From: Vibrio vulnificus CMCP6
GTDB lineage: Bacteria > Pseudomonadota > Gammaproteobacteria > Enterobacterales > Vibrionaceae
Direction of reading: 5' to 3'
Assembly (NCBI RefSeq): GCF_000039765.1
Contig: NC_004460.2
Span: forward strand, 1,410,001-1,442,000
DNA: 32,000 nucleotides
This document shows, piece by piece, positions 6,552 to 22,675 of this stretch (position 1 is the first letter of the stretch; every line of letters begins with the position of its first letter). The position numbers and the translations under genes were made by a program. The notes below the pieces were generated by a model that saw nothing but the letters and a program-made list of their open reading frames with translations, did not search any database and had not been told where the DNA came from.

Positions 6552-6557
6552 TTCGTT

Positions 6558-6584
6558 TTGACACCCTAGTGGTTGTTTTATGGC
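6558..6584 (+). promoter_or_regulatory. Possible sigma70 promoter of the Opp/Dpp-type operon
   Basis: Perfect -35 TTGACA (6558-6563). The best -10 candidate, TATGGC (6579-6584, 15-nt spacer), is weak. The element is bracketed by operators B and C. Confidence 0.3.
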
Positions 6585-6614
6585 TGTCACCGCGGAAAAT
6601 TTTTTATAACAACA

Positions 6615-6628
6615 AGAAAGCGCTTTCA
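6615..6628. promoter_or_regulatory. LacI-type operator copy C (proximal site of the SBP operon)
   Basis: AGAAAGCGCTTTCA, a 13/14 match to the core. There are 29 nt between it and the ATG at 6658. Confidence 0.65.
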
Positions 6629-6657
6629 TGGGGTGTAACTAAAACAAGGACAATGTG

Positions 6658-8295
6658 ATGCAAAAGAAAACTCTGCTCGCAACTCTCGCTGCCGGTCTTA
6701 TGCTTTCTGCAACTGCTACAACAGCGGCTGAGATCAAACAGGGTGGTACGCTAACCGTGCCAATCATCAACACGGGGTTTGTTGATAACTTCAACCCGTA
6801 TACCACCAAAGATCTGCTGCACGGCGTGATGTTTGAACCTCTAATGGTGTTCAACAACATGACCGGTGAAACGGATTTCCGTTTGGCAAAATCGGTCGCT
6901 TACTCGGACGATCTAAAAACCATTACTCTGACACTGCGTGATGGCTTGAAATGGTCTGATGGTTCACCGCTCACGGCAGACGACGTCGTCTACAGCTTTA
7001 TGCTCACCAAAGACGCGCCAGCGTTTGACCAAAAAGGCATTTGGTCAGGCAAGAATCTCCAGACGATTACCGCTAAAGACGCCACAACGGTGGTCTTTAA
7101 CCTGAATGAAGCGGATTCTACTTTTGTTTGGAACCTAGAGCGTTACCACATTGTTCCTAAGCACATCTGGTCAAAAGTGGAAGACTTAACCACCTTTACC
7201 AACCCAAATCCAGTGGGTAGCGGCCCGATGACCGTGGTGAAATACGTTAAACCGCAACAAATGGAATTGTGCCGCAACCCGAACTACTACCTTGAAGGTC
7301 GACCATACCTTGATTGCGTGAACTTCCGTTCTTACAACGACAACTCGCAAATTCAACCTGCGTTGATCAAAGGTGAAATCGACTGGGGTTCAAACTTCAT
7401 TGCTGACGTGGAATCCACGTTTGTCGCGCAAGACAAAGCCAACAACCACTTCTGGTACCCAGCGAACGATGCGATTCACCTTTACGTCAACACTAAGAAA
7501 GCCCCATTTGATGATCTGCGTGTTCGCCAAGCGCTTTCTATCGCGCTTGACCGCGAAGCGATCGTTGATATTGCTGCGTATGGCTACCCAACGCCAAACT
7601 ACAATGTTGGCGGCATTGGCGAACTGTACAAAACACACATCGATCCACAAATCTCGAAAAAATACGGCTATCTCACGCAATATGACGCTGAAAAAGCGAA
7701 ACAATTGCTAGAAGAAGCGGGCATTGTTGACCGTAACGGCGACGGTTTCCGCGACAACAAAGATGGCTCAACTGTGCAGTTCGATATCGAAGTCGTTAAC
7801 GGCTGGACCGACTGGATTCAAGTGGTGCAGATGGTGACGGAATACTTCGAAGAAGTCGGCATCAAAGCGAACGTGAAAACCGTTGACTGGGCAGTGTATG
7901 ACGCCAACTTGAAAGAGAGCAAATACACCATGTCGATCAACTGGTCGATGGTCGCCACCAACCCAATTTTGGCTTACCAAGAGTACTTCGCGACATCGCG
8001 TATCGGCAAAACATGGCACGCGGGCCACGGTGTGAACTCGCCAGAAATCGACAAGTTGATTGAAAGCTTCGGCAAAATCGGCGATGCGAAGAAGCAAGAA
8101 GCGATCATTTCACAACTGCAGGAATACACGGCGGAAAACCTACCGTTCATTCCTCTGTTCTCTAACCCAACTTGGTTCCAATACAGCACCAAGAAGATTG
8201 TTGGCTGGCCAAATGCAGAAAACCCATATGTACAGCCAGTGTGGTATGACGGCGGTAAGCGCGTGATCATCCTCAACAACCTACACCTGAAATAA
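6658..8295 (+). CDS. Family-5 (Opp/Dpp-type) ABC substrate-binding protein, periplasmic; predicted oligosaccharide-binding
   Basis: Signal peptide 'MQKKTLLATLAAGLMLSATATTAAE' and a size and sequence style typical of SBP_bac_5 proteins. ATG 6658 is preferred over GTG 6655 because the AAGGA Shine-Dalgarno (6646-6650) is 7 nt upstream. The sugar specificity is inferred from context. Confidence 0.85.
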   Translation: MQKKTLLATLAAGLMLSATATTAAEIKQGGTLTVPIINTGFVDNFNPYTTKDLLHGVMFEPLMVFNNMTGETDFRLAKSVAYSDDLKTITLTLRDGLKWSDGSPLTADDVVYSFMLTKDAPAFDQKGIWSGKNLQTITAKDATTVVFNLNEADSTFVWNLERYHIVPKHIWSKVEDLTTFTNPNPVGSGPMTVVKYVKPQQMELCRNPNYYLEGRPYLDCVNFRSYNDNSQIQPALIKGEIDWGSNFIADVESTFVAQDKANNHFWYPANDAIHLYVNTKKAPFDDLRVRQALSIALDREAIVDIAAYGYPTPNYNVGGIGELYKTHIDPQISKKYGYLTQYDAEKAKQLLEEAGIVDRNGDGFRDNKDGSTVQFDIEVVNGWTDWIQVVQMVTEYFEEVGIKANVKTVDWAVYDANLKESKYTMSINWSMVATNPILAYQEYFATSRIGKTWHAGHGVNSPEIDKLIESFGKIGDAKKQEAIISQLQEYTAENLPFIPLFSNPTWFQYSTKKIVGWPNAENPYVQPVWYDGGKRVIILNNLHLK

Positions 8296-8362
8296 GGGAT
8301 TTGTGTTTTCAATTGTTAGGAGTCACCGCCACGGTGGTGGCTCCTAGGTTAAAAGGTGTGTT

Positions 8363-9337
8363 ATGTCGTTTTTAGTTCGCCGTTTTGGCTTTTATTTTAC
8401 TGCCTTCCTGATTGCGATTTCATTCAACTTTATGTTGCCGCGCTTGATGCCGGGGGATCCGGTGGATGCCCTCTTTGCCGCAGCACAAGGTCGAATGGAC
8501 CCCGCTCAGATGGACGCAGTTCGTGAGATGTATGGTTTTGTCGATGGCAACCTGTTTGAACAGTATCTGGCTTACATGAAAAGCGTGTTTACGCTTGAGT
8601 TGGGCCCTTCGGTACTGATGTTCCCTGTGAGCGTGTCGGATGTGATTGCCATGGCGCTGCCATGGACCATGTTCCTTGCGCTGGGCTCTTTGATTGTGGC
8701 GCTGATCATTGGTGTCAGTATTGGTACTTACGCCTCGTATCATCGTCAGGGCCTGTTTGGCCAAGTGGTGCCACCAGTGCTGGCTTTCATCAGTAACTTC
8801 CCTTATGTCGTCACCGCGCTGCTGTTGTTCTACTTCTTCGGTTTGAAGATGGAATTGCTGCCGCTGGCGTACACCTACGACCCAGCGTTAGAGCCGGGCT
8901 TTAACCTGGAATTTATTGCCAGCGTTGCGAAACACGCGGTGCTTCCAGTGGGTTCGATGGTGGTGGTTGGCATCGCGACGTGGGTATTTAACATGCGCAA
9001 CGCGATGATCAACGTGTTGGGTGAAGATTACGTCACCATGGCGGAAGCGAAAGGACTCAGCAGTTTCCGCGTGATGTACCGCTATGCTGGCCGCAACGCG
9101 ATTTTGCCAGTGGCGACAGCCATTGCGATGGCGATCGGTTTCTCCTTCGCCGGCTCGATCATGACGGAAGTGGTGTTCAACTACCAAGGGCTTGGCAACA
9201 TTCTCTTGAAAGGGATTGTGGCGCGTGACTACCCGCTGATCCAAGCCATCTTGTTGATTCTTGTGACGGCAGTACTCACGGCGAACTTTATTGCCGATCT
9301 GCTCTACGTCTGGCTTGACCCCCGCATTTCAAATTAA
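8363..9337 (+). CDS. Opp/Dpp-type ABC permease (DppB/OppB-like)
   Basis: 324-aa polytopic protein with the typical N-terminus 'RRFGFYFTAFLIAISFNFMLPRLMPGDP' and a C-terminal 'LYVWLDPRI' motif. Confidence 0.9.
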   Translation: MSFLVRRFGFYFTAFLIAISFNFMLPRLMPGDPVDALFAAAQGRMDPAQMDAVREMYGFVDGNLFEQYLAYMKSVFTLELGPSVLMFPVSVSDVIAMALPWTMFLALGSLIVALIIGVSIGTYASYHRQGLFGQVVPPVLAFISNFPYVVTALLLFYFFGLKMELLPLAYTYDPALEPGFNLEFIASVAKHAVLPVGSMVVVGIATWVFNMRNAMINVLGEDYVTMAEAKGLSSFRVMYRYAGRNAILPVATAIAMAIGFSFAGSIMTEVVFNYQGLGNILLKGIVARDYPLIQAILLILVTAVLTANFIADLLYVWLDPRISN

Positions 9338-9345
9338 GGTGTACC

Positions 9346-10338
9346 ATGGACAAGATAATCAATACTAATAAAGCGTCCGAACCAAGTGAAATGATTGCTC
9401 GTGAGCCTCGTTTCTCGTGGAAAAAGACGAAAAAAACACTGGGTAAAATTTACGCATTTTTCTATGGCAACCCGCCCGCCATTATCGGTGGCTTGTTGCT
9501 GACTATCATTCTCTGCGGTGCGCTGTTTGCGCCAGTATTGGCGACGCACAACCCAGAAAAGCGCGTTGCTCGCCCACATGTGGCACCAAACGCAGAATAC
9601 GTGCTTGGCACCACACGCAGTGGCCGCGATGTTTACAGCCAAGTGCTGCATGGTGCGCGCAAATCACTCACGGTAGCGATCGCCGCGGGTGTGATTGCCA
9701 TGAGCCTAGCGGTGATCATTGGTGTTTCATCCGGCTACTTCGGCGGCAAAATCGATGAGCGCCTTAACTTTCTGACCAACGTTTTTCTGGTGTTCCCACA
9801 ACTGCCCTTGCTGATTGTGCTCGCCGCCTTTCTTGGTCAAGTGGGCTCCTTAGTCATTACGGTTCTGCTCGGCATCACCTCCTGGCCGTGGGGGGCGCGC
9901 GTAATACGTTCGCAAACCATGGCGATTCGAAACAAAGAATTCATCATCTCAGCGGAAGTGATGGGTGAGTCAAAAATTCGCATCATCTTGGTCGAAATTC
10001 TGCCAAACCTCGTTTCCATCGTATTCGGTGGCTTCTTAGGCACCGTGATTTACGCCATGGGCGCGGAAGCGGGCCTAGGCATTCTTGGCTTAGGTGACGC
10101 AACCGAAGTGAGCTGGGGCTCGATGCTTTACTGGGCGCAAACTTCCTCGTCGCTCTACACAGGGGCATGGTGGGAGATGCTGGTTCCGGCGTCGGCACTG
10201 GCGATTACTGGCGGCGCGTTGGCGCTGATCAACATGTCGATTGACCAAGTGAGCAACCCGAAACTGCGCACTGGCCCACACATCAAACTGTGGCATCAAT
10301 TGAAAAAGCAAGCCGATAAACGCCGAGGTCTACTATGA
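9346..10338 (+). CDS. Opp/Dpp-type ABC permease (DppC/OppC-like)
   Basis: 330-aa polytopic protein with 'LGTTRSGRDVYSQVLHGAR' and a C-terminal 'DQVSNPKLR', both typical of the DppC/OppC family. Confidence 0.9.
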   Translation: MDKIINTNKASEPSEMIAREPRFSWKKTKKTLGKIYAFFYGNPPAIIGGLLLTIILCGALFAPVLATHNPEKRVARPHVAPNAEYVLGTTRSGRDVYSQVLHGARKSLTVAIAAGVIAMSLAVIIGVSSGYFGGKIDERLNFLTNVFLVFPQLPLLIVLAAFLGQVGSLVITVLLGITSWPWGARVIRSQTMAIRNKEFIISAEVMGESKIRIILVEILPNLVSIVFGGFLGTVIYAMGAEAGLGILGLGDATEVSWGSMLYWAQTSSSLYTGAWWEMLVPASALAITGGALALINMSIDQVSNPKLRTGPHIKLWHQLKKQADKRRGLL

Positions 10339-11288
10339 GTCAGTTACTTGAAATCAATAACTTGTGCGTAGATTACGTCTCACCAAATGGCGTGGCGCGC
10401 GCAGTGAACAACGTCAGCTTAACCATCGCTCCTGGTGAAACGCTCGGACTGGCTGGCGAATCGGGCTGTGGTAAAAGTACCTTAGCTTTCGCCATCTCGC
10501 GTCTGCATAAAGCGCCTGCGCTGATCTCGGAGGGGGAAATCCTCTACAAAGGGCAAGACGTGCTGAAGATGAACGATCGCCAATTGCGCGATTTTCGCTG
10601 GAACGATGTGTCGGTGGTGTTCCAGAGCGCGATGAACTCGCTCAACCCAGTGATCACCATTGGTGAGCAGCTTACGGATGTGATTTTGGCACACCGTAAA
10701 ATCCCTTACAAACAAGCTCATGAGCGTGCGGTGGAACTGCTGAAAGTGGTGGGGATTCACGGCGATCGCATGAGCAGCTTTCCGCACCAACTTAGTGGCG
10801 GTATGAGACAGCGTGTGGTGATTGCGGTTGCTTTGGCGCTTGAGCCGAAACTGATCATCATGGATGAGCCAACCACGGCGCTGGATGTGGTGGTTGAGCG
10901 TGAAATCCTCAACGAGCTGTACGAGCTCAAGAGCAAGTTTGGCTTCTCGATTTTGTTCATCAGCCACGACTTGAGTTTGATGGGTGAAATTGCCGATCGC
11001 ATTGGCGTGATGTACGCGGGCAACCTGATTGAGCTGGGCGAGGCGAAGCAAGTGTTTGGCAATCCACAGCACCCTTATACCAAAGGGCTTATCTCATCGT
11101 TCCCGACTATTCACGGGCCGAAAGAGCGCCTTTACGGTATTCCGGGCAACCCAGTGAACCTGCTCAACATCCCGACAGGGTGTAATTTCCAAGAGCGCTG
11201 CGGTGTCTGCGCGTCGGTTTGTAAGCAGCAAGACCCTCGTTTAATGCATGCCGATAACGGCAGCCTAGTCTCGTGTCATTTGGTGTAG
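10335..11288 (+). CDS. Opp/Dpp-type ABC ATPase (DppD/OppD-like)
   Basis: Walker A 'GESGCGKST', signature 'LSGGMRQR', Walker B 'LIIMDEPTTALD' and a Cys-rich C-terminal oligopeptide-transporter domain ('CNFQERCGVCASVC'). ATGA overlap with the permease stop. Confidence 0.93.
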   Translation: MSQLLEINNLCVDYVSPNGVARAVNNVSLTIAPGETLGLAGESGCGKSTLAFAISRLHKAPALISEGEILYKGQDVLKMNDRQLRDFRWNDVSVVFQSAMNSLNPVITIGEQLTDVILAHRKIPYKQAHERAVELLKVVGIHGDRMSSFPHQLSGGMRQRVVIAVALALEPKLIIMDEPTTALDVVVEREILNELYELKSKFGFSILFISHDLSLMGEIADRIGVMYAGNLIELGEAKQVFGNPQHPYTKGLISSFPTIHGPKERLYGIPGNPVNLLNIPTGCNFQERCGVCASVCKQQDPRLMHADNGSLVSCHLV

Positions 11289-11299
11289 GGAGCGGAAAC

Positions 11300-12286
11300 A
11301 TGCAACAAGTAAACACACCTGAAGTGATTCTTTCGATCAAGAATCTGGTGAAAGATTTCCCGCTGGGCCAATCGGTCAAAAGCAATTTGATGCGCGCGGT
11401 AAACGATGTGTCGTTTGAGCTGCGCAAAGGTGAAGCGCTGGCGATTGTGGGCGAATCCGGCTCGGGTAAAAGCACGGGGGCGCGTATTCTCACCCGTATC
11501 TACGAGAAAACCGCGGGGGAAGTGACGTTTAAAGGCCAGCCGCTGGCCGATTACATCAAAGAAAATGGCGAGCTGGAATACGCGCGCCAGGTGCAGATGA
11601 TTTTCCAAGACCCCTTTGGTTCACTCAATCCGGTGCACACCATTTATCACCACATTGCGCGCCCGTTGCAGATCCACCAACGTGCCGATAAAGCGGCGAT
11701 TCCTAAGTTAGTGTATGAACTGTTGGAACTGGTGGGTTTGTCACCGGCCAAAGAGACGGCGGAAAAATACCCGCACGAACTCAGTGGCGGCCAGCGCCAG
11801 CGCGTGGCGATTGCGCGTGCGATTGCTGTTGACCCTGAAGTGATTTTGGCCGATGAGCCCATCTCAATGCTGGATGTGTCCGTTCGCTTAGGCATTTTGA
11901 ACTTGATGGCGGATCTCAAAGACAAGCACGGCATCTCATTTATGTACATCACTCACGATATCGCAACCGCACGTTACTTCGCTGAGAAGACCGCGGTGAT
12001 GTACGTTGGCCACATGGTGGAGTGGGGCGACAGCGATAGCGTGACGCAAAATCCGCAGCACCCATATTCGCAACTGCTGCTCTCGGCAGTGCCAGAAGTG
12101 GGCAAGGCGGGCAAACGCGAGCTGCAGGCGAAAAAAGGTGAAATTCCACTGTGGAAGCCAAGCAGTGTCGGTTGCCCATTTGCGGCTCGCTGCCTTAAAG
12201 CCACCGAGTTGTGTACGCGTTCTCTGCCAGAACCGACGCAGATTGCGGAAAACCATTTTGCTCGTTGCCATCACCTTGTTGGGTGA
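11300..12286 (+). CDS. Opp/Dpp-type ABC ATPase (DppF/OppF-like)
   Basis: Walker A 'GESGSGKST', signature 'LSGGQRQRVAIARA', Walker B 'ILADEPISMLD' and a C-terminal 'CPFAARC...ARCH' domain. ATG 11300 with a GGGAG Shine-Dalgarno (11288-11292) is preferred over the track's GTG at 11273. Confidence 0.92.
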   Translation: MQQVNTPEVILSIKNLVKDFPLGQSVKSNLMRAVNDVSFELRKGEALAIVGESGSGKSTGARILTRIYEKTAGEVTFKGQPLADYIKENGELEYARQVQMIFQDPFGSLNPVHTIYHHIARPLQIHQRADKAAIPKLVYELLELVGLSPAKETAEKYPHELSGGQRQRVAIARAIAVDPEVILADEPISMLDVSVRLGILNLMADLKDKHGISFMYITHDIATARYFAEKTAVMYVGHMVEWGDSDSVTQNPQHPYSQLLLSAVPEVGKAGKRELQAKKGEIPLWKPSSVGCPFAARCLKATELCTRSLPEPTQIAENHFARCHHLVG

Positions 12287-12312
12287 TGGCCAGTTAACTT
12301 TTTAAAAAAGCG

Positions 12313-12334
12313 AAAAAGAAAGCGCTTTCTTTTT
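12313..12334. promoter_or_regulatory. LacI-type operator copy D (between the ATPase gene and the 1149-aa gene)
   Basis: Perfect 22-bp palindrome AAAAAGAAAGCGCTTTCTTTTT. The core ends 18 nt before the ATG at 12349. Confidence 0.7.
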
Positions 12335-12348
12335 GTTGGAATGAAATT

Positions 12349-15300
12349 ATGAAGCTAGAACATCAAAAAAATCAGAACGTTGAAGGTTCGTTTGTCGATT
12401 TGCTCGGTGAGCGTTACTACAAAATTGCCCACGTTGACAAAATGGCCCCATTTTTCATTAGCGTGGTCTCCTCCAGCGACCATTGGCTGTTTATCTCATC
12501 AACAGGCAGTTTGTCGGCTGGCCGAATTCGTCCTGAAAATGCTCTTTTTCCCTACAAGTCTGTGGATCATATTCATGAAAGCGCGGAAAACACGGGCTCG
12601 AAAACCATTGTCCGTGTACAGCAAGATGGCCGTTGGGTACTGTGGGAACCGTTCAACCGTTTCCACGATGGCTTGTACCAAGTCGAGCGCAATCTCTACA
12701 AAAACAGCATTGGTGACAAAATCGTTTTTGAAGAGCTTAACCACACGCTAAAGCTGAAATTCCAATACGCTTGGGCCAGCAGCGATGAGTTTGGCTTTGT
12801 TCGCCGCGCGCAAATCAGCGATCTCTCTGGTCAAGATCGTGAGCTGGATATTCTCGACGGTCTACAAAACCTGTTGCCATCGGGTGCACCATTGGCAGCG
12901 TTACAAACGCGCAGTGCCTTAGTGGATGCCTACAAGTGGAATGAACAAGTGGAAGGCACGTCACTGGCGCTTTACACCATGTACGCTAAGTTGAGTGACC
13001 GCGCAGAGCCTGCCGAATCACTGTTGGCGACCACGGTGTTTAGCATTGATAACGACTACGGCCAAATTCTTCTCAGCAGCGAACAGCTCGGCGCGTTCCG
13101 CTGTGGTGAGCCGATTGTCAATGAGCCACTGACGCGTGGCGTGCGCGGCAGTTACTTGATCAACAAAACCATCAAGCTGCCAGCTGGGCAGAGCAAGCAT
13201 TGGCTGATCGTCGCCGATATCGATAAAAACCATTGTGATGTGCGTGCTTTAGAGCAGCAACTTGCGACGCCAGCGAATGTGGAACAGCAGATCGAGGCGA
13301 GCATCGCGCAAAATCAGCAAGAGTTGGTTGCTCTGATGTCCGGCGGTGACGCATGGCAAGTGACCGCAGAAGAGACCACGTTTGTGCACCACTACGCCAA
13401 CGTACTGTTCAACAGCATGCGTGGCGGCGTGATTGAAAACAACTACCAGCTCGACAAGCAAGACGTGCTGAAAACCATGCGCAAAACCAATCAACAGGTG
13501 GTGGCGCGCCAGCAAACCTTCTTTGCCGACCTGCCTGAGAGCTTTACTCATGCAGAGTTGGTTCGTCTGGCAAAGCTCACTGGTGATGCGCAGTTGGTGC
13601 GTTTGAGCTACGAATACTTGCCACTAACGTTTGGCCGTCGTCATGGTGACCCAAGCCGTCCTTGGAACCACTACGAAATCAAACTCAAAGATGACAAAGG
13701 TGAGCGTTTACTCTCTTACCAAGGCAACTGGCGCGACATTTTCCAAAACTGGGAAGCGTTGGCGCTGAGCTATCCGGGGTTCATCTCTTCATTCATGGCG
13801 AAGTTTGTTAACGCCTCAACCATGGATGGCTACAACCCGTATCGCATCACCAAAGAGGGTATCGATTGGGAACTGCTGGAAGCGGATGATCCGTGGAGCA
13901 ACATCGGTTACTGGGGCGATCACCAGATCATCTATTTGCTCAAATTCCTCGAGTTGGCGAAGAAATATCAACGTGAAGAGCTCAGCGAGCTACTCACCAG
14001 CGATCTGTTTAGCTACGCCAATGTGCCTTACGAGTTGTGTGGCGTGGACAAGTTGTTCGCCAATCCAAAAGACACGGTGTCGTTTAACCACGAACTGCAA
14101 AAGCGTATCGAAGAAAAAGTGGCGAAGCTGGGCAGTGATGGCCGTTTGATCCTCGAAGGGGAAGACAGCGTTTACATGGTGAACTTGTGCGAAAAAGTGC
14201 TGGTGCCTTTGCTATCGAAACTGAGCAATTTGGTGTTGGATGGGGGGATTTGGCTTAACACTCAGCGTCCGGAATGGAACGATGCCAACAATGCGATTGT
14301 CGGCAATGGTCTTTCGATGGTGACTTTGTACTACATGCGTCGTTATGTGGCTTTCTTGCAGGGATTAATGAGTGAACTGCCGTCCTCTGTCTCGATGTCG
14401 AAAGAAGTGTTTGATTGGATGCTCTCCATCACCCGCATTTTGCAAGACGCGACCAAAGAGATCCGCCAAGGCACGGTGAATCGTCAAACACGCAAAGCGA
14501 TGTTGACGCTGCTCGAAAAATCCGCCGATGAGTTCAGACAACGTGTCTACCGCATGAATGGTTTCTCAGGCAAAACCAAAGTGGAGAAAAGTGCACTTGA
14601 GAAACTGTTGGAAGCGAGCCTTGTGGTGCTTGATTCCAGCATCGAAAACAACTTGCGTGAAGACGGCTTGTATAACGCCTACAACATCCTGACTTACTCG
14701 GGTGAAAGCTTAAATATCGAAAATCTCTACCCAATGCTGGAAGGGCAAGTGGCGGTATTGAGTGCGGGTGTGCTCACACCAAAACAAGCCGTTGAGTTGT
14801 TGGATAAGCTGTTTAGCAGCGATATGTACCGTGACGATCAGCAAAGCTTCATGCTCTACCCGGATCGCGAATTGCCGGCGTTTGTCGCGCGTAACCGCAT
14901 TGCGCCTGCGCAAGTGGAAACTCATCGCGTCATCAGTGACATGCTGGCCAAGGGCGATCAACGCATTGTGCAGCGCGACATCCAGGGCGATTGCCATTTC
15001 CACGCCGCGTTTGAAAACGTCGATGGCCTGCGTAACGCGGTTGCCCAAGTGAAAATGGACTACCCTGAGTTCAGCAAAGAGCAGTGGGACGAACTCGATG
15101 TCCTTTATGAGCAGGTGTTTAACCACCGCGCCTTCACCGGCCGCTCTGGTACCATGTTTGGCTACGAAGGCTTGGGCTGTATCTACTGGCACATGGTTTC
15201 TAAACTGCTGTTGGCGGTGCAAGAGAACTACCAACACGCTTGGGAGCAAGATGCAAACAGCGAAGAAACCAAGCAGTTGGCGCAATACTACTACCGCGTT

Positions 15301-15798
15301 CGTCAGGGCATTGGCTTTAACAAAACGCCACAAAATTACGGCGCGTTCCCAACCGACCCATACTCGCATACGCCAAAGCACGCTGGTGCGCAGCAGCCTG
15401 GCATGACGGGCCAAGTGAAAGAAGAAGTGCTAACGCGTTTTGCCGAACTGGGTATTGAGGTTAACGCGCAGCGCATTGGTCTTCAGCCAACGCTATTGAG
15501 AAAGCAAGAGTTCCTCACACAAGCTACCACCTTTAGCTGTTTGAGCGTCTCGGGTGAGAAGCGCAGCTACGTGGTGGAAGCCAGTCAGTTAGCCTTCACT
15601 TACTGCCAAGTGCCGTTCATTTACCAGCTCAGCGAGCAGGATAAAGGACACATTGAAGTGATGATGAGTGACGACAGCGTGCAGTTGTTTGAGCAACTTG
15701 AGCTTGATGAGCGTATTAGCCAAGCAATTTTCGCTCGCACTGGCGAGGTGGAAAAAGTGGTGGTGAGCTTGCCAGAATCGATGCTGTATCGCGGTTAA
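12349..15798 (+). CDS. Large cytoplasmic protein of unassigned family; proposed GH94-clan glycoside phosphorylase (GH149/GH161-like beta-1,3-glucan phosphorylase)
   Basis: Uninterrupted 1149-aa ORF with no signal peptide. 'RPEWNDANNA' (nt 14266-14295) resembles the catalytic (D/E)WND segment of GH94 phosphorylases. The gene sits in a beta-glucan locus behind its own operator copy. The CDS itself is certain; the function is a hypothesis. Confidence 0.55.
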   Translation: MKLEHQKNQNVEGSFVDLLGERYYKIAHVDKMAPFFISVVSSSDHWLFISSTGSLSAGRIRPENALFPYKSVDHIHESAENTGSKTIVRVQQDGRWVLWEPFNRFHDGLYQVERNLYKNSIGDKIVFEELNHTLKLKFQYAWASSDEFGFVRRAQISDLSGQDRELDILDGLQNLLPSGAPLAALQTRSALVDAYKWNEQVEGTSLALYTMYAKLSDRAEPAESLLATTVFSIDNDYGQILLSSEQLGAFRCGEPIVNEPLTRGVRGSYLINKTIKLPAGQSKHWLIVADIDKNHCDVRALEQQLATPANVEQQIEASIAQNQQELVALMSGGDAWQVTAEETTFVHHYANVLFNSMRGGVIENNYQLDKQDVLKTMRKTNQQVVARQQTFFADLPESFTHAELVRLAKLTGDAQLVRLSYEYLPLTFGRRHGDPSRPWNHYEIKLKDDKGERLLSYQGNWRDIFQNWEALALSYPGFISSFMAKFVNASTMDGYNPYRITKEGIDWELLEADDPWSNIGYWGDHQIIYLLKFLELAKKYQREELSELLTSDLFSYANVPYELCGVDKLFANPKDTVSFNHELQKRIEEKVAKLGSDGRLILEGEDSVYMVNLCEKVLVPLLSKLSNLVLDGGIWLNTQRPEWNDANNAIVGNGLSMVTLYYMRRYVAFLQGLMSELPSSVSMSKEVFDWMLSITRILQDATKEIRQGTVNRQTRKAMLTLLEKSADEFRQRVYRMNGFSGKTKVEKSALEKLLEASLVVLDSSIENNLREDGLYNAYNILTYSGESLNIENLYPMLEGQVAVLSAGVLTPKQAVELLDKLFSSDMYRDDQQSFMLYPDRELPAFVARNRIAPAQVETHRVISDMLAKGDQRIVQRDIQGDCHFHAAFENVDGLRNAVAQVKMDYPEFSKEQWDELDVLYEQVFNHRAFTGRSGTMFGYEGLGCIYWHMVSKLLLAVQENYQHAWEQDANSEETKQLAQYYYRVRQGIGFNKTPQNYGAFPTDPYSHTPKHAGAQQPGMTGQVKEEVLTRFAELGIEVNAQRIGLQPTLLRKQEFLTQATTFSCLSVSGEKRSYVVEASQLAFTYCQVPFIYQLSEQDKGHIEVMMSDDSVQLFEQLELDERISQAIFARTGEVEKVVVSLPESMLYRG

Positions 15799-15860
15799 TC
15801 ACTAAGCGCTAATGGCTAATCGTTAAGCTTTAAGCGCTTACTTAGCCACTCAAACAGAAA

Positions 15861-15884
15861 CCTGGCCTCGCGATAGAGGCCAGG
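15861..15884 (+). other. GC-rich hairpin upstream of the terminator
   Basis: CCTGGCCTC / GAGGCCAGG 9-bp stem with a 6-nt loop and no T-run. Confidence 0.5.
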
Positions 15885-15896
15885 TGAGAGACATAA

Positions 15897-15926
15897 AGAA
15901 CCCCACCTTTTGGTGGGGTTCTTTTT
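15897..15926 (+). terminator. Rho-independent terminator between convergent genes
   Basis: AGAACCCCACC-tttt-GGTGGGGTTCT stem-loop followed by a run of T. An A-rich stretch on its 5' side could serve the convergent LacI gene as well. Confidence 0.85.
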
Positions 15927-16036
15927 CTGTGTGTCAGTCACGAAAGTCAGCGCAGGAACCAGTGAGCAAAGCCAAGGCACAGGGAAGCTCGCTATGGATT
16001 TCGCTGACGGCAAGGATTGTGAGAGTCGAGCTTGCG

Positions 16037-17047
16037 CTACTTGGTTGCCGCTTGATGTGGTTTCACCGAATCTCTCACCACCAGTTCTGGCGTTAGCTTG
16101 TGCTTTAATGGATAACTCTGTTTATTCACCAAAGCCAAGACCCCTTTGGCAGCTTCGCAGCCCATTTCCATCACCGGGAAGTTCACCGTGGTTAAGCGTG
16201 GGCGAATGTGTTGGCTGTGGGTATCGTTATCAAAACCGACCACAGAGAGATCGTCGCCAATCGCCAATCCGCGTTCTGCGGCCACGTCATAAACTGCGAG
16301 GGCAATGTTGTCGTTTTGACAGAAAATGGCGGTGATTTGTGGATCGCGATCGAGCAGACGGCGCGCCGCTTCGTGGTTGCCTTGATGGTCAAAACGCCCT
16401 TCGACAATCAAATTGGCATCATAGGCAATACCAAACTCAGCCAGTGCATTGCGATAACCTTGTAAGCGATCGCGGCTGTCGCCTTTGCTTAGCTGGCCAG
16501 TAATGCACGCCACTTTGCTGTGGCCATGTTCCAGCAGGTGCTTGGTCGCCAAATACCCACCGAGTTCGTTATCGATAAAAATGCAGTGATCGGCAATTTC
16601 AGGAATGTAGCGGTTCAAAACAATCGTGGCGTTTTGACGCTCAACCACTTCAATCAGTTCATCATCAGAGAGCTTATCGGAATGCACAATCAAACCGTCC
16701 ACCTGCTTTGAGCGCAGGAAGTTGATCGAATCTTGCTCTTTGGTGTGAGACTCTTGACCACTGGTGACGATCAAGTGAATGTTGTTTTGTCTTACCGTGT
16801 CTTCGGCATGGTGCATCAGTGGGCCATAAAACGGGCCGTCTAGCGAGCCAACCAACATGCCAATGCTGTTAGAACGGCTAGATGCCAGCGCCTGAGCAAA
16901 GGCGTTTGGTTTGTAGCCTAGCTTTTCAATCGCTTCGAAGACTTTTTTGCGATTGGCTTCTTTGACCGTTGGATGGTTATTGAGTGCTCTTGAAACCGTT
17001 GATTGAGAGACATTCGCCAGCTCGGATACTTCTTTAATGGTGATCAA
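16037..17047 (-). CDS. LacI-family transcriptional regulator (paralog 2), probable repressor acting on the AGAAAGCGCTTTCT operators
   Basis: HTH 'TIKEVSELANVSQSTVSRALN' plus a sugar-binding core ('VDGLIVH', 'IFCQNDNIALAVYD', 'VVGFDN'). TTG at 17047 has a strong AGGGGAG Shine-Dalgarno 5 nt upstream; the track's start (17080) is also a TTG. The divergent promoter region contains two operator copies. Confidence 0.88.
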   Translation of the reverse strand: MITIKEVSELANVSQSTVSRALNNHPTVKEANRKKVFEAIEKLGYKPNAFAQALASSRSNSIGMLVGSLDGPFYGPLMHHAEDTVRQNNIHLIVTSGQESHTKEQDSINFLRSKQVDGLIVHSDKLSDDELIEVVERQNATIVLNRYIPEIADHCIFIDNELGGYLATKHLLEHGHSKVACITGQLSKGDSRDRLQGYRNALAEFGIAYDANLIVEGRFDHQGNHEAARRLLDRDPQITAIFCQNDNIALAVYDVAAERGLAIGDDLSVVGFDNDTHSQHIRPRLTTVNFPVMEMGCEAAKGVLALVNKQSYPLKHKLTPELVVRDSVKPHQAATK

Positions 17048-17233
17048 TGGAACTCCCCTTATATTGCCTTTTGAGTTCAAGCGGACAGTGTACCTGCGCG
17101 ATGTTCTCTCGCCTAGAATTCTGGTAGCGAAGATAGCAAAACTCTGAACTGCATAACGCCCTGCGAGAGCGGATGCTCACGCTTTGAGCAATTTAACCGT
17201 GTTGCAGGGGATTATAATGTGATCTACGCACAA

Positions 17234-17247
17234 AGAAAGCGCTTGCT
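17234..17247. promoter_or_regulatory. LacI-type operator copy E (distal, LacI/GH17 divergent region)
   Basis: AGAAAGCGCTTGCT, a 13/14 match to the core. It is preceded by ATTATAAT (17211-17218), which reads TATAAT on both strands, and by TGTGATCTA (17218-17226). Confidence 0.6.
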
Positions 17248-17401
17248 TGTTGGTGGCGCTCACGTTTTTCATCCTTATTTGTTTCTAGAATGGTTTTATC
17301 GACGGAGAACATTGTGAACTATGGGTTTGTCAATGTTATTTCTGTCGCTTAGCGAGAGCGCTCTGTCTTCTTGGTTCGTTTTCTCGCTCTTTTTTTAAAA
17401 C

Positions 17402-17423
17402 AAAAAGAAAGCGCTTTCTTTTT
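17402..17423. promoter_or_regulatory. LacI-type operator copy F (proximal to the GH17 gene)
   Basis: Perfect 22-bp palindrome AAAAAGAAAGCGCTTTCTTTTT, identical to copy D. The core ends 40 nt before the ATG at 17460. Confidence 0.7.
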
Positions 17424-17459
17424 GTTTTTGTTCCAATCCATAACGTAAGGACACAAAGA

Positions 17460-19307
17460 ATGAATCTGATGAAAAACATCATCAAGTCCGCGTTACTGCT
17501 CGGTTTTTCTAGCTTGTTGGTCGCGTGCGGAAGTGACAGCAAAACAGAAGCAGACAGTAATACCGGAACGCCAAATGAAGTCGTGCTTGCGCCTCAGCCA
17601 GCGCCAGAGGGCAACTACCCAACTGCGCGCAATGGCGAGCCGTTGCTGGGTAATGCCAATTATCCCGCCATTTCTTATGGCGCATTTCGCACCACCGAGC
17701 GTACCGAAGCCAATGTGCCTTCGGTCGCGGAACTGAAAGAAGATCTTCGCTTAATGGAAGCGATGGGCATCAAAGTGCTGCGCACCTACAACACCCAAGG
17801 GTTCAGCGATACGGCGAATCTGTTGATCGCCATTGATGAACTGATGGCGGAAGATGAAAACTTTGAAATGTACGTGATGCTGGGCATTTGGATTGATGCG
17901 CTGAACTCATGGACAAGCAACCCAATCGACCCGACACAAAACAACCCAGCTAACTACGCCGAAGTGGCGAAAGCGATTGAGATGGTCAATGCCTACCCTG
18001 AGATCATCAAAGTGCTGGCGGTGGGGAATGAGGCGATGGTGCATTGGGCACCTTACCACGTGACGCCAACCATCATTCTTGAGCATGTCAACACGCTGCG
18101 CGAGAAACGCGATAACGGTGAGATCCCTGCGAACGTTTGGATCACCAGTTCTGACAACTTCGCTTCTTGGGCTGGGCAAGGTGACTACAACCATCCGGAT
18201 CTCGCTAAGTTGGTGGAAGCGGTTGACTACATTTCACTCCACTCTTACCCGTTCCACGACACTCACTATGCGAATGCGTTTTGGTTGGTGCCAGAAGAAG
18301 AGCAAAGTCTGAACACGATTGAAAAAGTCGATGCGGCGATGCTGCGTGCCAAACAACATCTGCTTTCTCAGGTGAAACTGGTGCAAGACTACCTGGCGGG
18401 CCTTGGCGTGAACAAGCAGATCCACATCGGTGAAACCGGCTGGGCGTCAGAAACCAACGTTATGTATGGAGATGAAGGCTCGAAAGCGGCGGACGAATAC
18501 AAGCAAAAAGCGTTTTTCGATTTGATGCGTGCTTGGTCGCAAGAGTTTGGCGCGTCACTGTTCTTCTTCCAAGCCTTTGATGAGCCATGGAAAGGCGCGG
18601 CGGATAATCCGGGGGATTCTGAGAAACACTTTGGCCTGATTGACATCAACGGCAATGCCAAATACGTGATTTGGGATCTGGTTGACGCAGGCGCGTTCGA
18701 CGGCATCACTCGCGCGGGCTTGAACATTGTGAAAAGCCACGGTGGTGTGGAACAAAACGTATTGGACAGCGTGCTTGCGCCCAATGCCAAACCTGTGGTT
18801 GATCAACCGTCTGACGCCGATCAATTCATTGTGCTCGACAGCGCCTTGCTGACTGGCGGCGAAGCGATTGCATGGGAAGGCACGGCGTACCTCGCCGCAG
18901 AGGCCGGAGTGCTGAAGCTTACCACGCCACCAACGGCGGGTACCGCAAAAGACTGGGGTTGGGGAGCTGGCGTTGTGCTGGCGGGTCAAGCCGGTGCGAA
19001 CCTGACGGGCTTTGAAAATGGCAGCCTATCGTTTGAGATCAAAGGCACCACAGGTTCGGTGCTCAACATCGGTTTTCAAACGGGTTTATGGGGTAACAAC
19101 GATCGCCCGCAAACCAATAACTTTGTGGTGTTTGGTCCAACAGGCCGTGCCATTAGTACCGAATGGACAGCTTACACCGTCCCAATGAGCGAGCTGGTCA
19201 AAGGCAACCCCGATTTTAGCGACGTTACTTCGCTGATCTACTTCAGTGGCACTGCCGACATTGATGGCGGCGTTGTGGAAGTGCGCAATGTGGTCTTCAA
19301 CAAATAA
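17460..19307 (+). CDS. GH17 beta-1,3-glucanase/transglycosylase lipoprotein with a C-terminal beta-sandwich (CBM-like) domain
   Basis: Lipobox 'LLVAC|GS'. GH17 hallmarks are present: 'LAVGNEAMV' (acid/base), 'IGETGWAS' (nucleophile region), 'FQAFDEPWKG' and 'EKHFGLIDINGNAKY'. Confidence 0.85.
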   Translation: MNLMKNIIKSALLLGFSSLLVACGSDSKTEADSNTGTPNEVVLAPQPAPEGNYPTARNGEPLLGNANYPAISYGAFRTTERTEANVPSVAELKEDLRLMEAMGIKVLRTYNTQGFSDTANLLIAIDELMAEDENFEMYVMLGIWIDALNSWTSNPIDPTQNNPANYAEVAKAIEMVNAYPEIIKVLAVGNEAMVHWAPYHVTPTIILEHVNTLREKRDNGEIPANVWITSSDNFASWAGQGDYNHPDLAKLVEAVDYISLHSYPFHDTHYANAFWLVPEEEQSLNTIEKVDAAMLRAKQHLLSQVKLVQDYLAGLGVNKQIHIGETGWASETNVMYGDEGSKAADEYKQKAFFDLMRAWSQEFGASLFFFQAFDEPWKGAADNPGDSEKHFGLIDINGNAKYVIWDLVDAGAFDGITRAGLNIVKSHGGVEQNVLDSVLAPNAKPVVDQPSDADQFIVLDSALLTGGEAIAWEGTAYLAAEAGVLKLTTPPTAGTAKDWGWGAGVVLAGQAGANLTGFENGSLSFEIKGTTGSVLNIGFQTGLWGNNDRPQTNNFVVFGPTGRAISTEWTAYTVPMSELVKGNPDFSDVTSLIYFSGTADIDGGVVEVRNVVFNK

Positions 19308-19411
19308 TCGTTGATCCGCGACGAAGGGCTATGCCAGTGGCATAGCCTGTTTGCCGTTCAGCGGATCCAACACCGACAATGCAGTCACGGGGCATCCCGT
19401 GCGGAGGAATC

Positions 19412-21013
19412 ATGACATCGAACAATCGTAATCGAATTAACCAGCTTGCTTTGGCCGTTTCTCTTGGCCTTTTAGTGGGCTGCAGCCAAACCGGCGACAG
19501 CGCATCCGCAACTGATCTTGTCCAAACCAAAAAGCCTGTGATGCTACAGGATCAACCTACGCCGCCAAGCGATCAGTGGCAATTGGTGTGGGTCGATGAG
19601 TTTGACGGCGACAAAATCAACAAGCGCAACTGGAGTTTAGAAGAGAACTGCTGGGGCGGCGGCAACAACGAGCAGCAGTGCTACACCAAACGTGCGCGTA
19701 ATGCCTTTGTGCAAGATGGCTATTTGCATATCGTCGCGCACAAAGAGAGCTACAGCGGCCCAGACAATCCAGAGGGTAAAGTCGGCGCTGGTGCCAACAA
19801 AACCTTGCCATTTACCTCCGCGCGTTTGCGCACCAAAGGCAAACGCGACCACAAATATGGCCGTTTTGAAATTCGCGCCAAACTGCCATCAGGGCAGGGA
19901 ACGTGGCCAGCGATTTGGATGCTGCCGACCGACAACAAATACGGCACTTGGGCGGCCTCTGGTGAAATCGATATCATGGAAGCGGTTAACCTGAAAGCGC
20001 AATCCGATGCGCCAGGAGCACAAGCGGGTGATGGTGAAAATCGCATTTACGGCAGCCTGCATTATGGCAAAGCATGGCCAGATAATGTCTACAGTGGGCA
20101 AGGCGCGTCACTGCCGAACAACATCAACCCTGCTGATGACTTCCATACCTACGCGATTGAGTGGGAAGAAGGGGAAATTCGTTGGTACGTCGACAACATT
20201 CACTACGCGACACAAACGCAAGATGAGTGGTACAGCCAATACAAAGTCGATGGAGCTCTGGTCAACGCCAAAGGCGCAGCACCGTTTGATGAACGTTTCC
20301 ATTTGCTGCTCAACCTTGCCGTAGGCGGCTCTTGGTCGGCCAATGCCAACCAAAAAGGGATTGACAAGTCGGACTTCCCGAAAACCATGCTGGTGGATTA
20401 TGTCAAAGTATATCGCTGCTCGGCGGATCGCTGGAAAGGCAAAGGCTGCGCGACCATCGGTGAGCAAGCGGTGAAGGTCAAAGGGCATCAAGCTCCGGCG
20501 ATTTTGGCGCAGGATGACCGCTACGCCGATGGGCCAAACCTAGATATTTTCTCCGAAAGCCTCAACAGCAACTTGGCGTACGGCAGTTACGATCCGATGG
20601 ACATTGTTTCGCACCAAGAAGTGGCCGATGGTGATCACGGCCAAGTGCTGAAAATCACCAAGCAAAATGGCGCGGGCAACCTCTATTTCCGCTCACCCAC
20701 GACTGACGTGAGCCATTGGTTAGAGAGTGGCGAGTTGATCTTTGATATCAAAGTGGAGTCGATGACCGACGGCAGTGAGTTGATGGTGAAGATCGACAGT
20801 GGCTGGCCAAAAACCAGTGACATGACGGTGGCACTACCTCCGATTGGTCAGTGGGGGGAAGTGCGCATCAAACTGGCGGATCTCTTAGCGCAGTCCAACC
20901 GCTTTGTTGCAGGTAACCAAGCCGATCCTAAAATGATCAACAACTTACTGGTGTTTGAACCGACTGCCGCAATGACATTCAGTTTGGATAATATTCGTTT
21001 CGAAAAACGCTAA
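19412..21013 (+). CDS. GH16 endo-beta-1,3-glucanase (laminarinase) lipoprotein with a C-terminal CBM-like domain
   Basis: GH16 catalytic motif 'GEIDIMEAV' and typical laminarinase blocks ('WVDEFDG', 'FTSARL', 'GTWPAIWMLP', 'LNLAVGGSW'). ATG 19412 has a GGAGGA Shine-Dalgarno and gives the lipoprotein signal 'MTSNNRNRINQLALAVSLGLLVGC|SQ'. Confidence 0.92.
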   Translation: MTSNNRNRINQLALAVSLGLLVGCSQTGDSASATDLVQTKKPVMLQDQPTPPSDQWQLVWVDEFDGDKINKRNWSLEENCWGGGNNEQQCYTKRARNAFVQDGYLHIVAHKESYSGPDNPEGKVGAGANKTLPFTSARLRTKGKRDHKYGRFEIRAKLPSGQGTWPAIWMLPTDNKYGTWAASGEIDIMEAVNLKAQSDAPGAQAGDGENRIYGSLHYGKAWPDNVYSGQGASLPNNINPADDFHTYAIEWEEGEIRWYVDNIHYATQTQDEWYSQYKVDGALVNAKGAAPFDERFHLLLNLAVGGSWSANANQKGIDKSDFPKTMLVDYVKVYRCSADRWKGKGCATIGEQAVKVKGHQAPAILAQDDRYADGPNLDIFSESLNSNLAYGSYDPMDIVSHQEVADGDHGQVLKITKQNGAGNLYFRSPTTDVSHWLESGELIFDIKVESMTDGSELMVKIDSGWPKTSDMTVALPPIGQWGEVRIKLADLLAQSNRFVAGNQADPKMINNLLVFEPTAAMTFSLDNIRFEKR

Positions 21014-21026: not shown

Positions 21027-21066
21027 GCCCAAGCTCGTGGTGAAAATCACGGGCTTTTTGTTTTTT
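21027..21066 (+). terminator. Probable rho-independent terminator after the GH16 gene
   Basis: Imperfect (bulged) stem GCCC..CGTG / CACGGGC followed by TTTTTGTTTTTT. Confidence 0.55.
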
Positions 21067-21169: not shown

Positions 21170-21183
21170 AGAAAGCGCTTTCT
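21170..21183. promoter_or_regulatory. LacI-type operator copy G (distal, porin promoter)
   Basis: Perfect 14-bp core AGAAAGCGCTTTCT. TGTGAT (21155-21160) lies just upstream. Confidence 0.65.
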
Positions 21184-21343: not shown

Positions 21344-21361
21344 AAAGAAAGCGCTTTCTTT
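21344..21361. promoter_or_regulatory. LacI-type operator copy H (proximal, porin promoter)
   Basis: Perfect 18-bp palindrome AAAGAAAGCGCTTTCTTT. The core ends 32 nt before ATG 21392 and lies immediately downstream of a TATAAA -10-like hexamer. Confidence 0.7.
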
Positions 21362-21391
21362 TAAGGGCTAATGATGGAACATGGAGTTAAT

Positions 21392-22675
21392 ATGAAACTT
21401 TCTAAGCTTACCCTCGCTTGTCTAGTTGCGACTGCGGGCCTATCCGCTGCACCTGTTGTTCATGCTGAAAAATCAGATGGTTTTGAGTTCCACGGTTACT
21501 TCCGTGCGGGCGCACTGTACAGCAAGAATGACGATTTCAAACGTTCAAAATTCCCAGCATCTAAAGAGCGTCTAGGCCGCTTGGGTATTGAATCGGACAA
21601 CCATTTTGAGCTTGCGCTACAGAAAAACTTTGAAAACGATGACGGCCAAAAAATTCGCATCAAAACGCGTGTAGGTGCCGATAACGCACAGTCAGCTGGC
21701 AACAACCAACTTGGCACCAACGCAGATGCGGCGAACAGCAGCATCGGTATGGTAGAAACCTTTGTTGAGTTTGATGGCGTGACTGAAACTGGCACGCTTT
21801 GGGGCGGTACGCGCTTCTACGGCAAAGACAACTATATCTTCATGACCGACTTCTTCTACACCGACATGTCGGGTACCGGTGTGGGTATCGAAGGCGTTCA
21901 ACTGGGTGATTACAAGTGGGATTTCGCGTATGTCGCCAGTGATAACGCAGAAGATTCATTCTGGGCAACCAACTCGAACAACCCAATGCACGCGGTGCAC
22001 GTAGGCGTTGATTTTGATGGTGTTGAACTGCACGCCATGGGTAAATATCTACCAGACAACTTTGTCGATGGTACAGAATACGCCAGCAATGGTGTCGAGA
22101 TGACCGCGATTGTTCACTCAGACAAAGTGTTTGGTCTATCAGACAAAGGCTTTACCAAGTACATCGCTCAGGCAGGTAAAGGTCTTGGCTCTGGTCAGCT
22201 ACTTGGCGGTACGCTCACCACTTACAACGCATGGAAACCGGGCAATGGCGCATTGGAAGGCCCTTCCAAAATGAAGAAAGTGGAAAGCGGTGATGTCTCT
22301 GCGCGTGCATTGGTATGGGGTGGCTACTTCTTTGAAAACGGCGTCAGCATCTTCCACTCTATCCAAGGTCAATACAACGATCTCGATAACGGCGGCAAAG
22401 ATAGCTGGGCATCGGCGATGATTCGTCCATCATTCCCAGTGGCGCAAAACTTCTTCATCGCGACAGAAGCTGGCTTCCAGTACAACAAATGGGAAGATGC
22501 AAACGGTGTGGGTGACGATGCCACTAACTACAAACTGACGGTTGCACCAACCATCATCGTTCCAACGGGTTTTGGCCCAGCACCTGAAATTCGTTTCCTT
22601 GCCACATACCTAGACGGATCAATGCGTGACAAAGCGGACATCCTTGTGGGTATCCAAGCAGACATGTGGTGGTAA
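21392..22675 (+). CDS. LamB (maltoporin)-family carbohydrate porin, predicted gluco-oligosaccharide channel
   Basis: Signal peptide 'MKLSKLTLACLVATAGLSAAPVVHA|EK'. 'FEFHGYFRAG' matches the maltoporin N-terminal motif and the protein ends '...GIQADMWW' like LamB. ATG 21392 (GGAG Shine-Dalgarno) is preferred over 21371. Confidence 0.85.
   Translation: MKLSKLTLACLVATAGLSAAPVVHAEKSDGFEFHGYFRAGALYSKNDDFKRSKFPASKERLGRLGIESDNHFELALQKNFENDDGQKIRIKTRVGADNAQSAGNNQLGTNADAANSSIGMVETFVEFDGVTETGTLWGGTRFYGKDNYIFMTDFFYTDMSGTGVGIEGVQLGDYKWDFAYVASDNAEDSFWATNSNNPMHAVHVGVDFDGVELHAMGKYLPDNFVDGTEYASNGVEMTAIVHSDKVFGLSDKGFTKYIAQAGKGLGSGQLLGGTLTTYNAWKPGNGALEGPSKMKKVESGDVSARALVWGGYFFENGVSIFHSIQGQYNDLDNGGKDSWASAMIRPSFPVAQNFFIATEAGFQYNKWEDANGVGDDATNYKLTVAPTIIVPTGFGPAPEIRFLATYLDGSMRDKADILVGIQADMWW

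Follow-up and report, generated by a model that had tools for sequence, protein, structure and literature searches.

A predicted GH149 beta-1,3-glucan phosphorylase in a putative LacI-controlled laminarin module of Vibrio vulnificus

Known GH149 systems and the Vibrio vulnificus locus

Enzymes of glycoside hydrolase (GH) family GH149 are inverting phosphorylases that act on beta-1,3-gluco-oligosaccharides with a degree of polymerisation (DP) of at least 2, releasing alpha-glucose 1-phosphate (Glc1P) and proceeding down to glucose (PMC5827456, PMC6484121, PMC8950772). Here we describe the gene at positions 12349 to 15798 on the plus strand of a 32,000-nucleotide (nt) stretch of Vibrio vulnificus CMCP6 DNA (contig NC_004460.2, positions 1,410,001 to 1,442,000), which is called the window below and to which all coordinates refer. 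Its product of 1149 amino acids (aa) is very probably a cytoplasmic, inverting GH149 beta-1,3-glucan phosphorylase that would complete a laminarin pathway under LacI control, the activity itself being what we infer here. Laminarin makes up a large pool of carbon in the sea, and bacteria that feed on it spend less ATP by phosphorolysis than by hydrolysis.

GH149 genes occur in many Vibrio species, and in Proteobacteria including Vibrio spp. they are found in the Type I cluster (Kuhaudomlarp et al. 2018, PMC5827456, Fig. 7A), where GH149 accompanies an ATP-binding cassette (ABC) importer, made up of a COG0747 substrate-binding protein (SBP), two permeases and two ATPases, and a LacI or AraC regulator. 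These clusters were stated to be without an extracellular laminarinase or outer-membrane transporter and were suggested to be scavengers of small oligosaccharides (PMC5827456). The window contains the same ABC cassette, GH149 gene and LacI gene, and is of this type. However, it departs from the published Type I clusters, as do the corresponding loci of a V. parahaemolyticus-type contig (L001) and of the V. cholerae-labelled assembly GCA_015749305.1 (L006), in having lipoprotein-type GH17 and GH16 glucanase genes and a LamB-family porin gene directly downstream. The order importer-GH149-LacI is the same in these two loci, in V. breoganii (L002) and in Psychromonas sp. KJ10-10 (L003, CP178826.1).

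The GH149 enzyme Pro_7066 is metagenomic, Flavobacteria-like (Kuhaudomlarp et al. 2018, 2019) and encoded in a Bacteroidetes polysaccharide utilisation locus, whereas the V. vulnificus gene lies in a gammaproteobacterial ABC/LacI cluster. The two proteins are collinear over their full length, are identical at the WND, RD, Glu and His residues of the active site and are both without a targeting peptide, but a surface site for laminarihexaose that is intact in Pro_7066 is largely replaced in the V. vulnificus protein. Enzymes of family GH161 (PapP, THA_1941; structures 9QQK, 9GY9) have the substrate class, the clan, the catalytic Asp and the phosphate-recognising His in common with it, at about 14% identity. 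Laminaribiose is a substrate of GH149 enzymes but cannot be cleaved by those of GH161, which require a DP of at least 3 (PMC6484121); the difference matters here because the adjacent GH17 enzyme is expected to yield mainly laminaribiose. The V. proteolyticus chitobiose phosphorylase ChbP (1V7V), a GH94 enzyme, shares the fold of clan GH-Q and a mechanism that uses the Asp loop (Foldseek E=1.9e-13), but is a protein of about 780-800 aa with about 10% structural identity, is without the insertions Dom1 and Dom2 that are specific to GH149, and acts on GlcNAc-beta-1,4-GlcNAc. In the ChbP chitobiose operon an Opp/Dpp-type importer precedes an inverting phosphorylase of the cytoplasm, which produces a sugar 1-phosphate, and the same logic is proposed here for the GH149 cluster.

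Family assignment and predicted structure

Among the NCBIfam profiles the 1149-aa protein has a single match, the equivalog model NF058639.1 'GH149_beta_1_3' (1,3-beta-D-glucan phosphorylase, GH149 family), with E=0 and 1789.3 bits, where the curated cut-off is 1150 bits, and the match covers residues 8-1141 of the protein and positions 2-1133 of the 1134 in the profile. A sequence search of the PDB similarly returned Pro_7066 (6HQ6/6HQ8) at E=0 and 1080 bits, with residues 11-1145 of the V. vulnificus protein aligned to chain positions 39-1173. When the Pro_7066 chain was reconstructed from these alignments and re-aligned, identity was 44% over 1123 aligned columns, and all four Pro_7066 domains and both insertions found a counterpart. 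Mapped from the boundaries defined for Pro_7066 (PMC6771811), the V. vulnificus protein consists of an N-terminal beta-sandwich (aa 16-294), a helical linker (aa 295-332), a catalytic domain of (alpha/alpha)6 type (aa 333-1034) and, at the C-terminus, a jelly roll (aa 1035-1144). The catalytic domain holds Dom1 (aa 361-421, 59 of 59 columns aligned, 29% identity to Pro_7066) and Dom2 (aa 843-927, 85 of 87 columns, 25% identity). In the same PDB search the GH161 structures 9QQK and 9H8V were matched only over three short stretches (E=3.8e-10, 41 bits), and no GH94-named chain was found up to E=10. By sequence, then, the protein belongs to GH149 in clan GH-Q, with GH161 and GH94 as distant clan relatives.

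The AlphaFold model of the protein (m4eee21a6a47c; mean predicted local distance difference test score (pLDDT) 74, predicted template modelling score 0.65) was used for fold ranking only, and its active-site geometry was left aside. A Foldseek search of the PDB with this model placed GH149 (6HQ8/6HQ6) at the top (E=2e-91, TM 0.61, 43% identity), followed by GH161 (E=3e-30, 14% identity) and by the GH94 laminaribiose phosphorylase (E=2e-21, 12% identity), with the other GH94 enzymes, 1V7V among them, at about 1e-13 and about 10% identity. The GH94 domains of cyclic beta-1,2-glucan synthase (8RF0, 8RFE) were also matched. As judged from the model, this ranking of GH149 above GH161 above GH94 is what a GH149 protein of clan GH-Q should give.

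A preliminary description of this DNA, made from the letters alone, had proposed a beta-1,3-glucan phosphorylase of GH149- or GH161-like kind and had suggested profile searches together with a structure prediction and search as checks. The sequence evidence agrees with the proposal and narrows it to GH149, and the best structural matches fall in the same family. The profile searches gave a divided answer, since the Pfam part was empty (no match even at E<=1) and the NCBIfam part returned the GH149 equivalog. For the same reason the remark that the protein carries no hydrolase-family signature holds for Pfam and fails for NCBIfam and the PDB. The empty Pfam result is probably why the gene appeared to be an orphan, both in that description and in deposited annotations. 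It is not one: all 8000 scored candidates in a 90%-clustered database had E<=1e-10, the closest being V. vulnificus proteins at 99% identity, and a library clustered at 50% identity yielded 889 clusters at E<=1e-30. An identical protein is encoded on the V. vulnificus record CP012740.1, a 1.9-Mb replicon. The 99%-identical V. vulnificus homologues and most other Vibrio homologues are, in nearly all cases where a name is given, still labelled 'hypothetical protein', which reflects annotation lag and not a gap in knowledge. The family, its structure, its mechanism and the Vibrio cluster type are all already published, and a curated profile names the protein; the fallback of the preliminary description, a protein of unknown function, gives way to a routine CAZy-family member in a cluster architecture already reported for Vibrio. 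The practical value of the present analysis is mainly one of annotation, in that the family can be named without ambiguity from a curated model and a crystal structure.

Active-site residues

The active site of Pro_7066 includes a W651/N652/D653 loop, in which D653 is the predicted catalytic residue, together with R470/D471, E951 and H959 (PMC6771811). The corresponding loop of the V. vulnificus protein lies in the segment RPEWNDANNA (residues 640-649), where E642-W-N-D645 is encoded at nt 14272-14283 and the WND triplet W643-N644-D645 at 14275..14283 on the plus strand. R462-D463 (13732..13737, plus strand) corresponds to the R470/D471 motif of sugar 1-phosphate recognition, and in the segment from E940 to H948 (15166..15192, plus strand) E940 is the counterpart of the donor-subsite contact E951 and H948 that of H959, which is involved in phosphate recognition. 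In a MAFFT alignment of the protein with 104 full-length representatives (36-51% identity) and Pro_7066, each of R462, D463, W643, N644, D645, E940 and H948 was invariant (106 of 106 sequences). Because it aligns with D653 of Pro_7066 and is invariant throughout this alignment, D645 is identified by sequence as the family's catalytic Asp and the predicted general acid. The preliminary description had proposed it as the catalytic Asp from the likeness of the segment to the (D/E)WND segment of GH94 phosphorylases.

Conservation does not extend to the surface oligosaccharide-binding site of Pro_7066. Two of its eight residues are kept (Y993 and R1062), and the others are replaced (K831->F, E838->D, Y841->Q, E982->S, E990->Q, E994->R). 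This poor conservation agrees with the remark of the group that described Pro_7066 that conservation of the site is lower among bacterial GH149 sequences at greater distance.

Transcription unit and predicted operator

The GH149 gene begins with ATG, is the longest open reading frame (ORF) in the ORF listing of the window (the runner-up encodes 933 aa) and has a GC content of 51.0%, compared with 50.8% for the window. A hydrophobic signal segment was looked for at its N-terminus (MKLEHQKNQNVEGSF...) and none was found, while the SBP, the two glucanases and the porin of the locus each have one, and the protein is predicted to be cytoplasmic. Upstream lie the five plus-strand genes of an Opp/Dpp-type ABC importer (6655..12286). 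They encode an SBP with a signal peptide (6655-8295, SBP_bac_5), two permeases (8363-9337 and 9346-10338, BPD_transp_1) and two ATPases (10335-11288 and 11273/11300-12286, ABC_tran and oligo_HPY). The last of these genes is separated from GH149 by 62 nt, in which a terminator scan found no terminator-like site, so that the simplest reading makes GH149 the sixth importer-operon gene, preceded by an additional operator, and the importer and GH149 are probably co-transcribed. Two strong terminator-like hairpins, on opposite strands (15860..15924), close both this unit and the convergent LacI gene, with stems of 13 pairs at 15895-15924 (plus) and 10 pairs at 15885-15860 (minus). Further terminator-like sites follow the GH16 gene (21031-21056) and the porin gene (22820-22837).

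The palindrome AGAAAGCGCTTTCT occurs at eight sites in the window when up to two mismatches are allowed, five of them perfect, against 0.27 expected, and none of 100 shuffles reached eight. All eight copies are in 5' or intergenic regions and their extended consensus is AAAGAAAGCGCTTTCTTT. Two copies stand upstream of the SBP gene (6536-6549, perfect; 6615-6628, one mismatch), two in the region between the divergent LacI and GH17 genes (17234-17247, one mismatch; 17406-17419, perfect) and two ahead of the LamB-family porin gene (21170-21183 and 21346-21359, both perfect), while a copy with one mismatch at 6253-6266 is found about 80 nt upstream of a minus-strand gene for a 259-aa protein. The remaining copy is perfect, occupies 12317-12330 and is separated from the GH149 ATG by 18 nt (12331-12348), its centre being 25 nt upstream. 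The predicted operator fits the LacI-family type AAAGCGCTTT in being an even palindrome with a central CG, in its location in promoter regions and in its proximity to a regulator gene, and a comparable motif of a LacI-family transcription factor is nnntcAAAGCGCTTTgannn of AglR (PMC4052901). The site ahead of GH149 is conserved in other genomes, as a perfect copy in the V. parahaemolyticus-type contig (GAAAGCGCTTTC) and as GTAAGCGCTTTC in V. breoganii and GAAAGCGCTTAC in Psychromonas. In both the window and the V. parahaemolyticus-type contig, the downstream glucanase and porin genes share the operator.

On the sequence evidence, the shared predicted operator supports co-regulation of the importer, GH149, LacI, GH17-GH16 and porin genes. 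This had been anticipated for GH149, the glucanases and the porin in the preliminary description, and an operator in every promoter region of the module, with its position conserved in three other genomes, bears it out. So, too, do the other features that it had listed: the rank of the gene as the largest in the window, the missing signal peptide, the importer directly ahead, the operator ending 18 nt before the ATG and the location of the EWND segment were all recovered, and every coordinate given was correct. The operator at 12317 may control an internal promoter, or it may act on the upstream promoter as a second site. A reading of this palindrome as a terminator or attenuator was rejected: the region folds unremarkably (-7.9 kcal/mol, z = -0.40) and so is not a terminator, the site is absent from the terminator scan, and the identical palindrome is also found in divergent promoter regions, upstream of genes that open an operon.

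The LacI-family regulator encoded at 16037..17080 on the minus strand (336 aa from a public-record start equivalent to 17047) is probably the cognate repressor. It is the likelier of the two LacI-family proteins of the window because it has 51% identity to the sole LacI of the V. breoganii GH149 cluster, compared with 33% for the one encoded at 4360-5382. The latter, which also has no operator copy nearby, was set aside as the less likely regulator. A literature search for a named regulator of the GH149-cluster operator found none.

Proposed laminarin pathway

Downstream of the LacI gene, the plus strand encodes a GH17 endo-beta-1,3-glucanase (17460-19307, 615 aa), which matches PDB entry 6FCG at 6.9e-125 and has no Pfam match above threshold, followed by a GH16 glucanase (19379-21013) and, behind two perfect operators, the LamB-family porin (21371-22675). 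Both glucanases carry lipobox-type signal sequences (LLVAC in GH17, LLVGC in GH16), which suggests that they are anchored at the surface rather than secreted in free form. From its size and species, and without a direct alignment, the GH17 protein appears to be the published VvGH17, an endo-beta-1,3-glucanase composed of a GH17 domain and a novel C-terminal glucan-binding domain, the main product of which is laminaribiose (PMC9026390).

In the proposed pathway, the two surface lipoproteins would cut laminarin into short beta-1,3-gluco-oligosaccharides, mainly laminaribiose, which the LamB-type porin and then the Opp/Dpp-type SBP and ABC importer would take into the cell. There the GH149 enzyme would use inorganic phosphate to remove the glucose at the non-reducing end, with D645 of the WND loop as the general acid, and would produce Glc1P and a chain shorter by one unit, ending at glucose. 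Compared with hydrolysis followed by a kinase, phosphorolysis would save one ATP per bond. The LacI-family repressor would bind the AAAGAAAGCGCTTTCTTT palindromes, presumably to be released by a laminari-oligosaccharide. The suggestion in the preliminary description that imported laminari-oligosaccharides are the substrates is in agreement with the family, the importer and the regulon.

The present analysis makes two modest additions to published knowledge. One is the delineation of a predicted LacI regulon with a conserved operator of 14-18 bp that links surface glucanases, porin, importer and phosphorylase; the other, for V. vulnificus and vibrios related to it, is the extension of the published Type I cluster to a full proposed laminarin pathway. 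With both, the understanding of the system stays as it was. A more far-reaching idea, which we regard as tentative and rather unlikely, is that the GH149 proteins of the Vibrio clade form a functionally distinct subtype, without the surface glucan-binding site of Pro_7066 and perhaps tuned to the laminaribiose made by GH17, within a complete laminarin pathway that runs from the outer membrane to the cytoplasm under a single repressor. The conserved 259-aa protein of predicted periplasmic-binding-protein fold (5400-6179, minus strand) may be part of such a pathway. If true, this would revise the published view of Type I GH149 clusters as scavengers of small oligosaccharides only.

Alternative explanations

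Several observations weigh against a GH149 phosphorylase at the end of a laminarin pathway under LacI control. Two cytoplasmic beta-glucosidases, GH3 (23847-26648) and GH1 (1747-3096), could hydrolyse the same substrates and would then divide the flux with the phosphorylase. The characterised GH149 enzymes listed are only EgP1, Pro_7066 and GH149_H, none of them from Vibrio (PMC8950772), and a literature search for a characterised Vibrio GH149 found none. Chain-length preference could differ from that of Pro_7066, as the sequence identity is 44%, and the surface oligosaccharide-binding site of that enzyme is, by alignment, lost in the Vibrio protein. A sigma-70-like promoter was looked for in the 62-nt gap ahead of GH149 and none was found. 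The AlphaFold model is of moderate quality and its segments with pLDDT below 50 (425-463, 498-522, 637-653, 928-945 and 991-1021) coincide with the most conserved stretches that form the active site; the low confidence of these loops probably arises because the alignment was shallow (35 sequences, 64-95% identity), so that invariant columns gave no covariation signal.

Some of these points bear on the most plausible of the rival explanations, although we consider it improbable: a GH149 enzyme with another substrate or chain-length specificity, be it strict for laminaribiose, directed at branched beta-1,3/1,6 oligosaccharides or acting on some other beta-linked glucoside. The divergence from Pro_7066, which is greatest in Dom1 and Dom2 (25-29% identity) near the active-site gate, and the loss of the surface site leave room for such a difference, and EgP1 and Pro_7066 themselves differ in kinetics at 45% identity (PMC5827456). 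The published VvGH17, apparently encoded in the same module, moreover yields mainly laminaribiose. However, the score is well above the cut-off of an equivalog-type model, the donor-subsite and phosphate-site residues are all invariant, and the neighbouring enzymes of the regulon (GH17, GH16, GH3) all come from families active on beta-1,3-glucan. A role that is mainly synthetic in vivo, making beta-1,3-glucan from Glc1P, or an activity as hydrolase or transglycosylase instead of phosphorylase, is very unlikely. GH149 enzymes are reversible in vitro, with Pro_7066 synthesis products of up to DP 11 (PMC5827456), and the clan relatives include the synthase domains 8RF0 and 8RFE. The gene, however, belongs to a catabolic module in which secreted glucanases, a porin and an importer stand under a sugar-type repressor; the His of phosphate recognition is kept, as is the RD motif, and there are no glucan export or synthase genes nearby in the window. 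Least probable of all, to the point of being negligible, is membership of GH161 or GH94 in place of GH149. The common clan GH-Q fold and catalytic Asp loop, the weak matches to 9QQK and 9H8V (about 4e-10) and the Foldseek matches to both families can be cited in its favour. GH161 was nevertheless ruled out, its 41 bits over short stretches and 14% structural identity standing against 1080 bits over the full length and 43% for GH149. GH94 was ruled out as well, as it is represented by fold-level likeness only (9-12% identity), with no Pfam model at E<=1 and no GH94-named chain up to E=10 in the PDB sequence search. The length of the protein and its Dom1 and Dom2 insertions also fit GH149.

Related loci and neighbouring genes

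Homologues labelled V. cholerae share 94-96% identity with the V. vulnificus protein. In assembly GCA_015749305.1 the whole module is present in the order 258-aa gene, importer, GH149, LacI, GH17, GH16, LamB, AraC and GH3, but its left flank differs, a DEAD helicase and a LysR gene standing in place of the block of GH1, sugar-ABC and LacI genes. This combination suggests a module of about 20 kb that moves between Vibrio species, with species mislabelling as another possibility. In Psychromonas (6000-19200) the genes for permease, ATPase, LacI, LamB and GH3 are each split into at least two pieces in the gene calls and the GH149 gene is intact (1153 aa), a pattern due either to frameshift sequencing errors in the assembly or to decay of the locus.

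The 259-aa protein (5400-6179, minus strand) has no signal peptide, and its gene is over-extended to 6299 (TTG) in the ORF listing; its homologues start with MSRFWNGNK. Searches of Pfam and NCBIfam gave no family (SBP_bac_3 was sub-threshold at E=0.016), and the PDB sequence search gave no match. Public records name the protein 'ABC transporter substrate-binding protein / type 2 periplasmic-binding domain'. Synteny with the GH149 cluster is kept in the V. parahaemolyticus-type contig (45% identity), V. breoganii (51%) and Psychromonas (44%), and the 258-aa gene of GCA_015749305.1 was matched to it by position rather than by alignment. With an operator of one mismatch about 80 nt upstream, the protein may belong to the laminarin regulon without having been recognised as part of it.

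The right end of the module, in the window as in the V. parahaemolyticus-type contig and GCA_015749305.1, is taken up by the plus-strand gene of the cytoplasmic GH3 protein (23847-26648, 933 aa), which is without a LacI operator and pairs with an AraC-type regulator gene on the minus strand (22843-23712). Its domain order is permuted, with the GH3 C-terminal domain at aa 25-264, an Fn3-like domain at 329-404 and the GH3 N-terminal domain at 540-794. It may be the LamN-type laminaribiase mentioned elsewhere (PMC5827456).

A second sugar-utilisation block on the plus strand (22-5382) comprises CUT1-type ABC permeases, the GH1 beta-glucosidase (1747-3096; TIGR03356, E=2e-187), a MalK/UgpC-type ATPase and a LacI gene. 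The window scan found no copy of the AGAAAGCGCTTTCT operator near this block. The captured part of the block (GH1, ATPase and LacI) is present in the V. parahaemolyticus-type contig, and the block is absent in GCA_015749305.1. Towards the other end of the window, a gene for an HlyD/EmrA-type adaptor (28811-29920, plus strand) overlaps by 104 nt a plus-strand ORF with a GTG start (29817-30908, DUF2955), the start of which has probably been set too far upstream; together the two resemble an efflux system of AaeAB type that has no relation to GH149.

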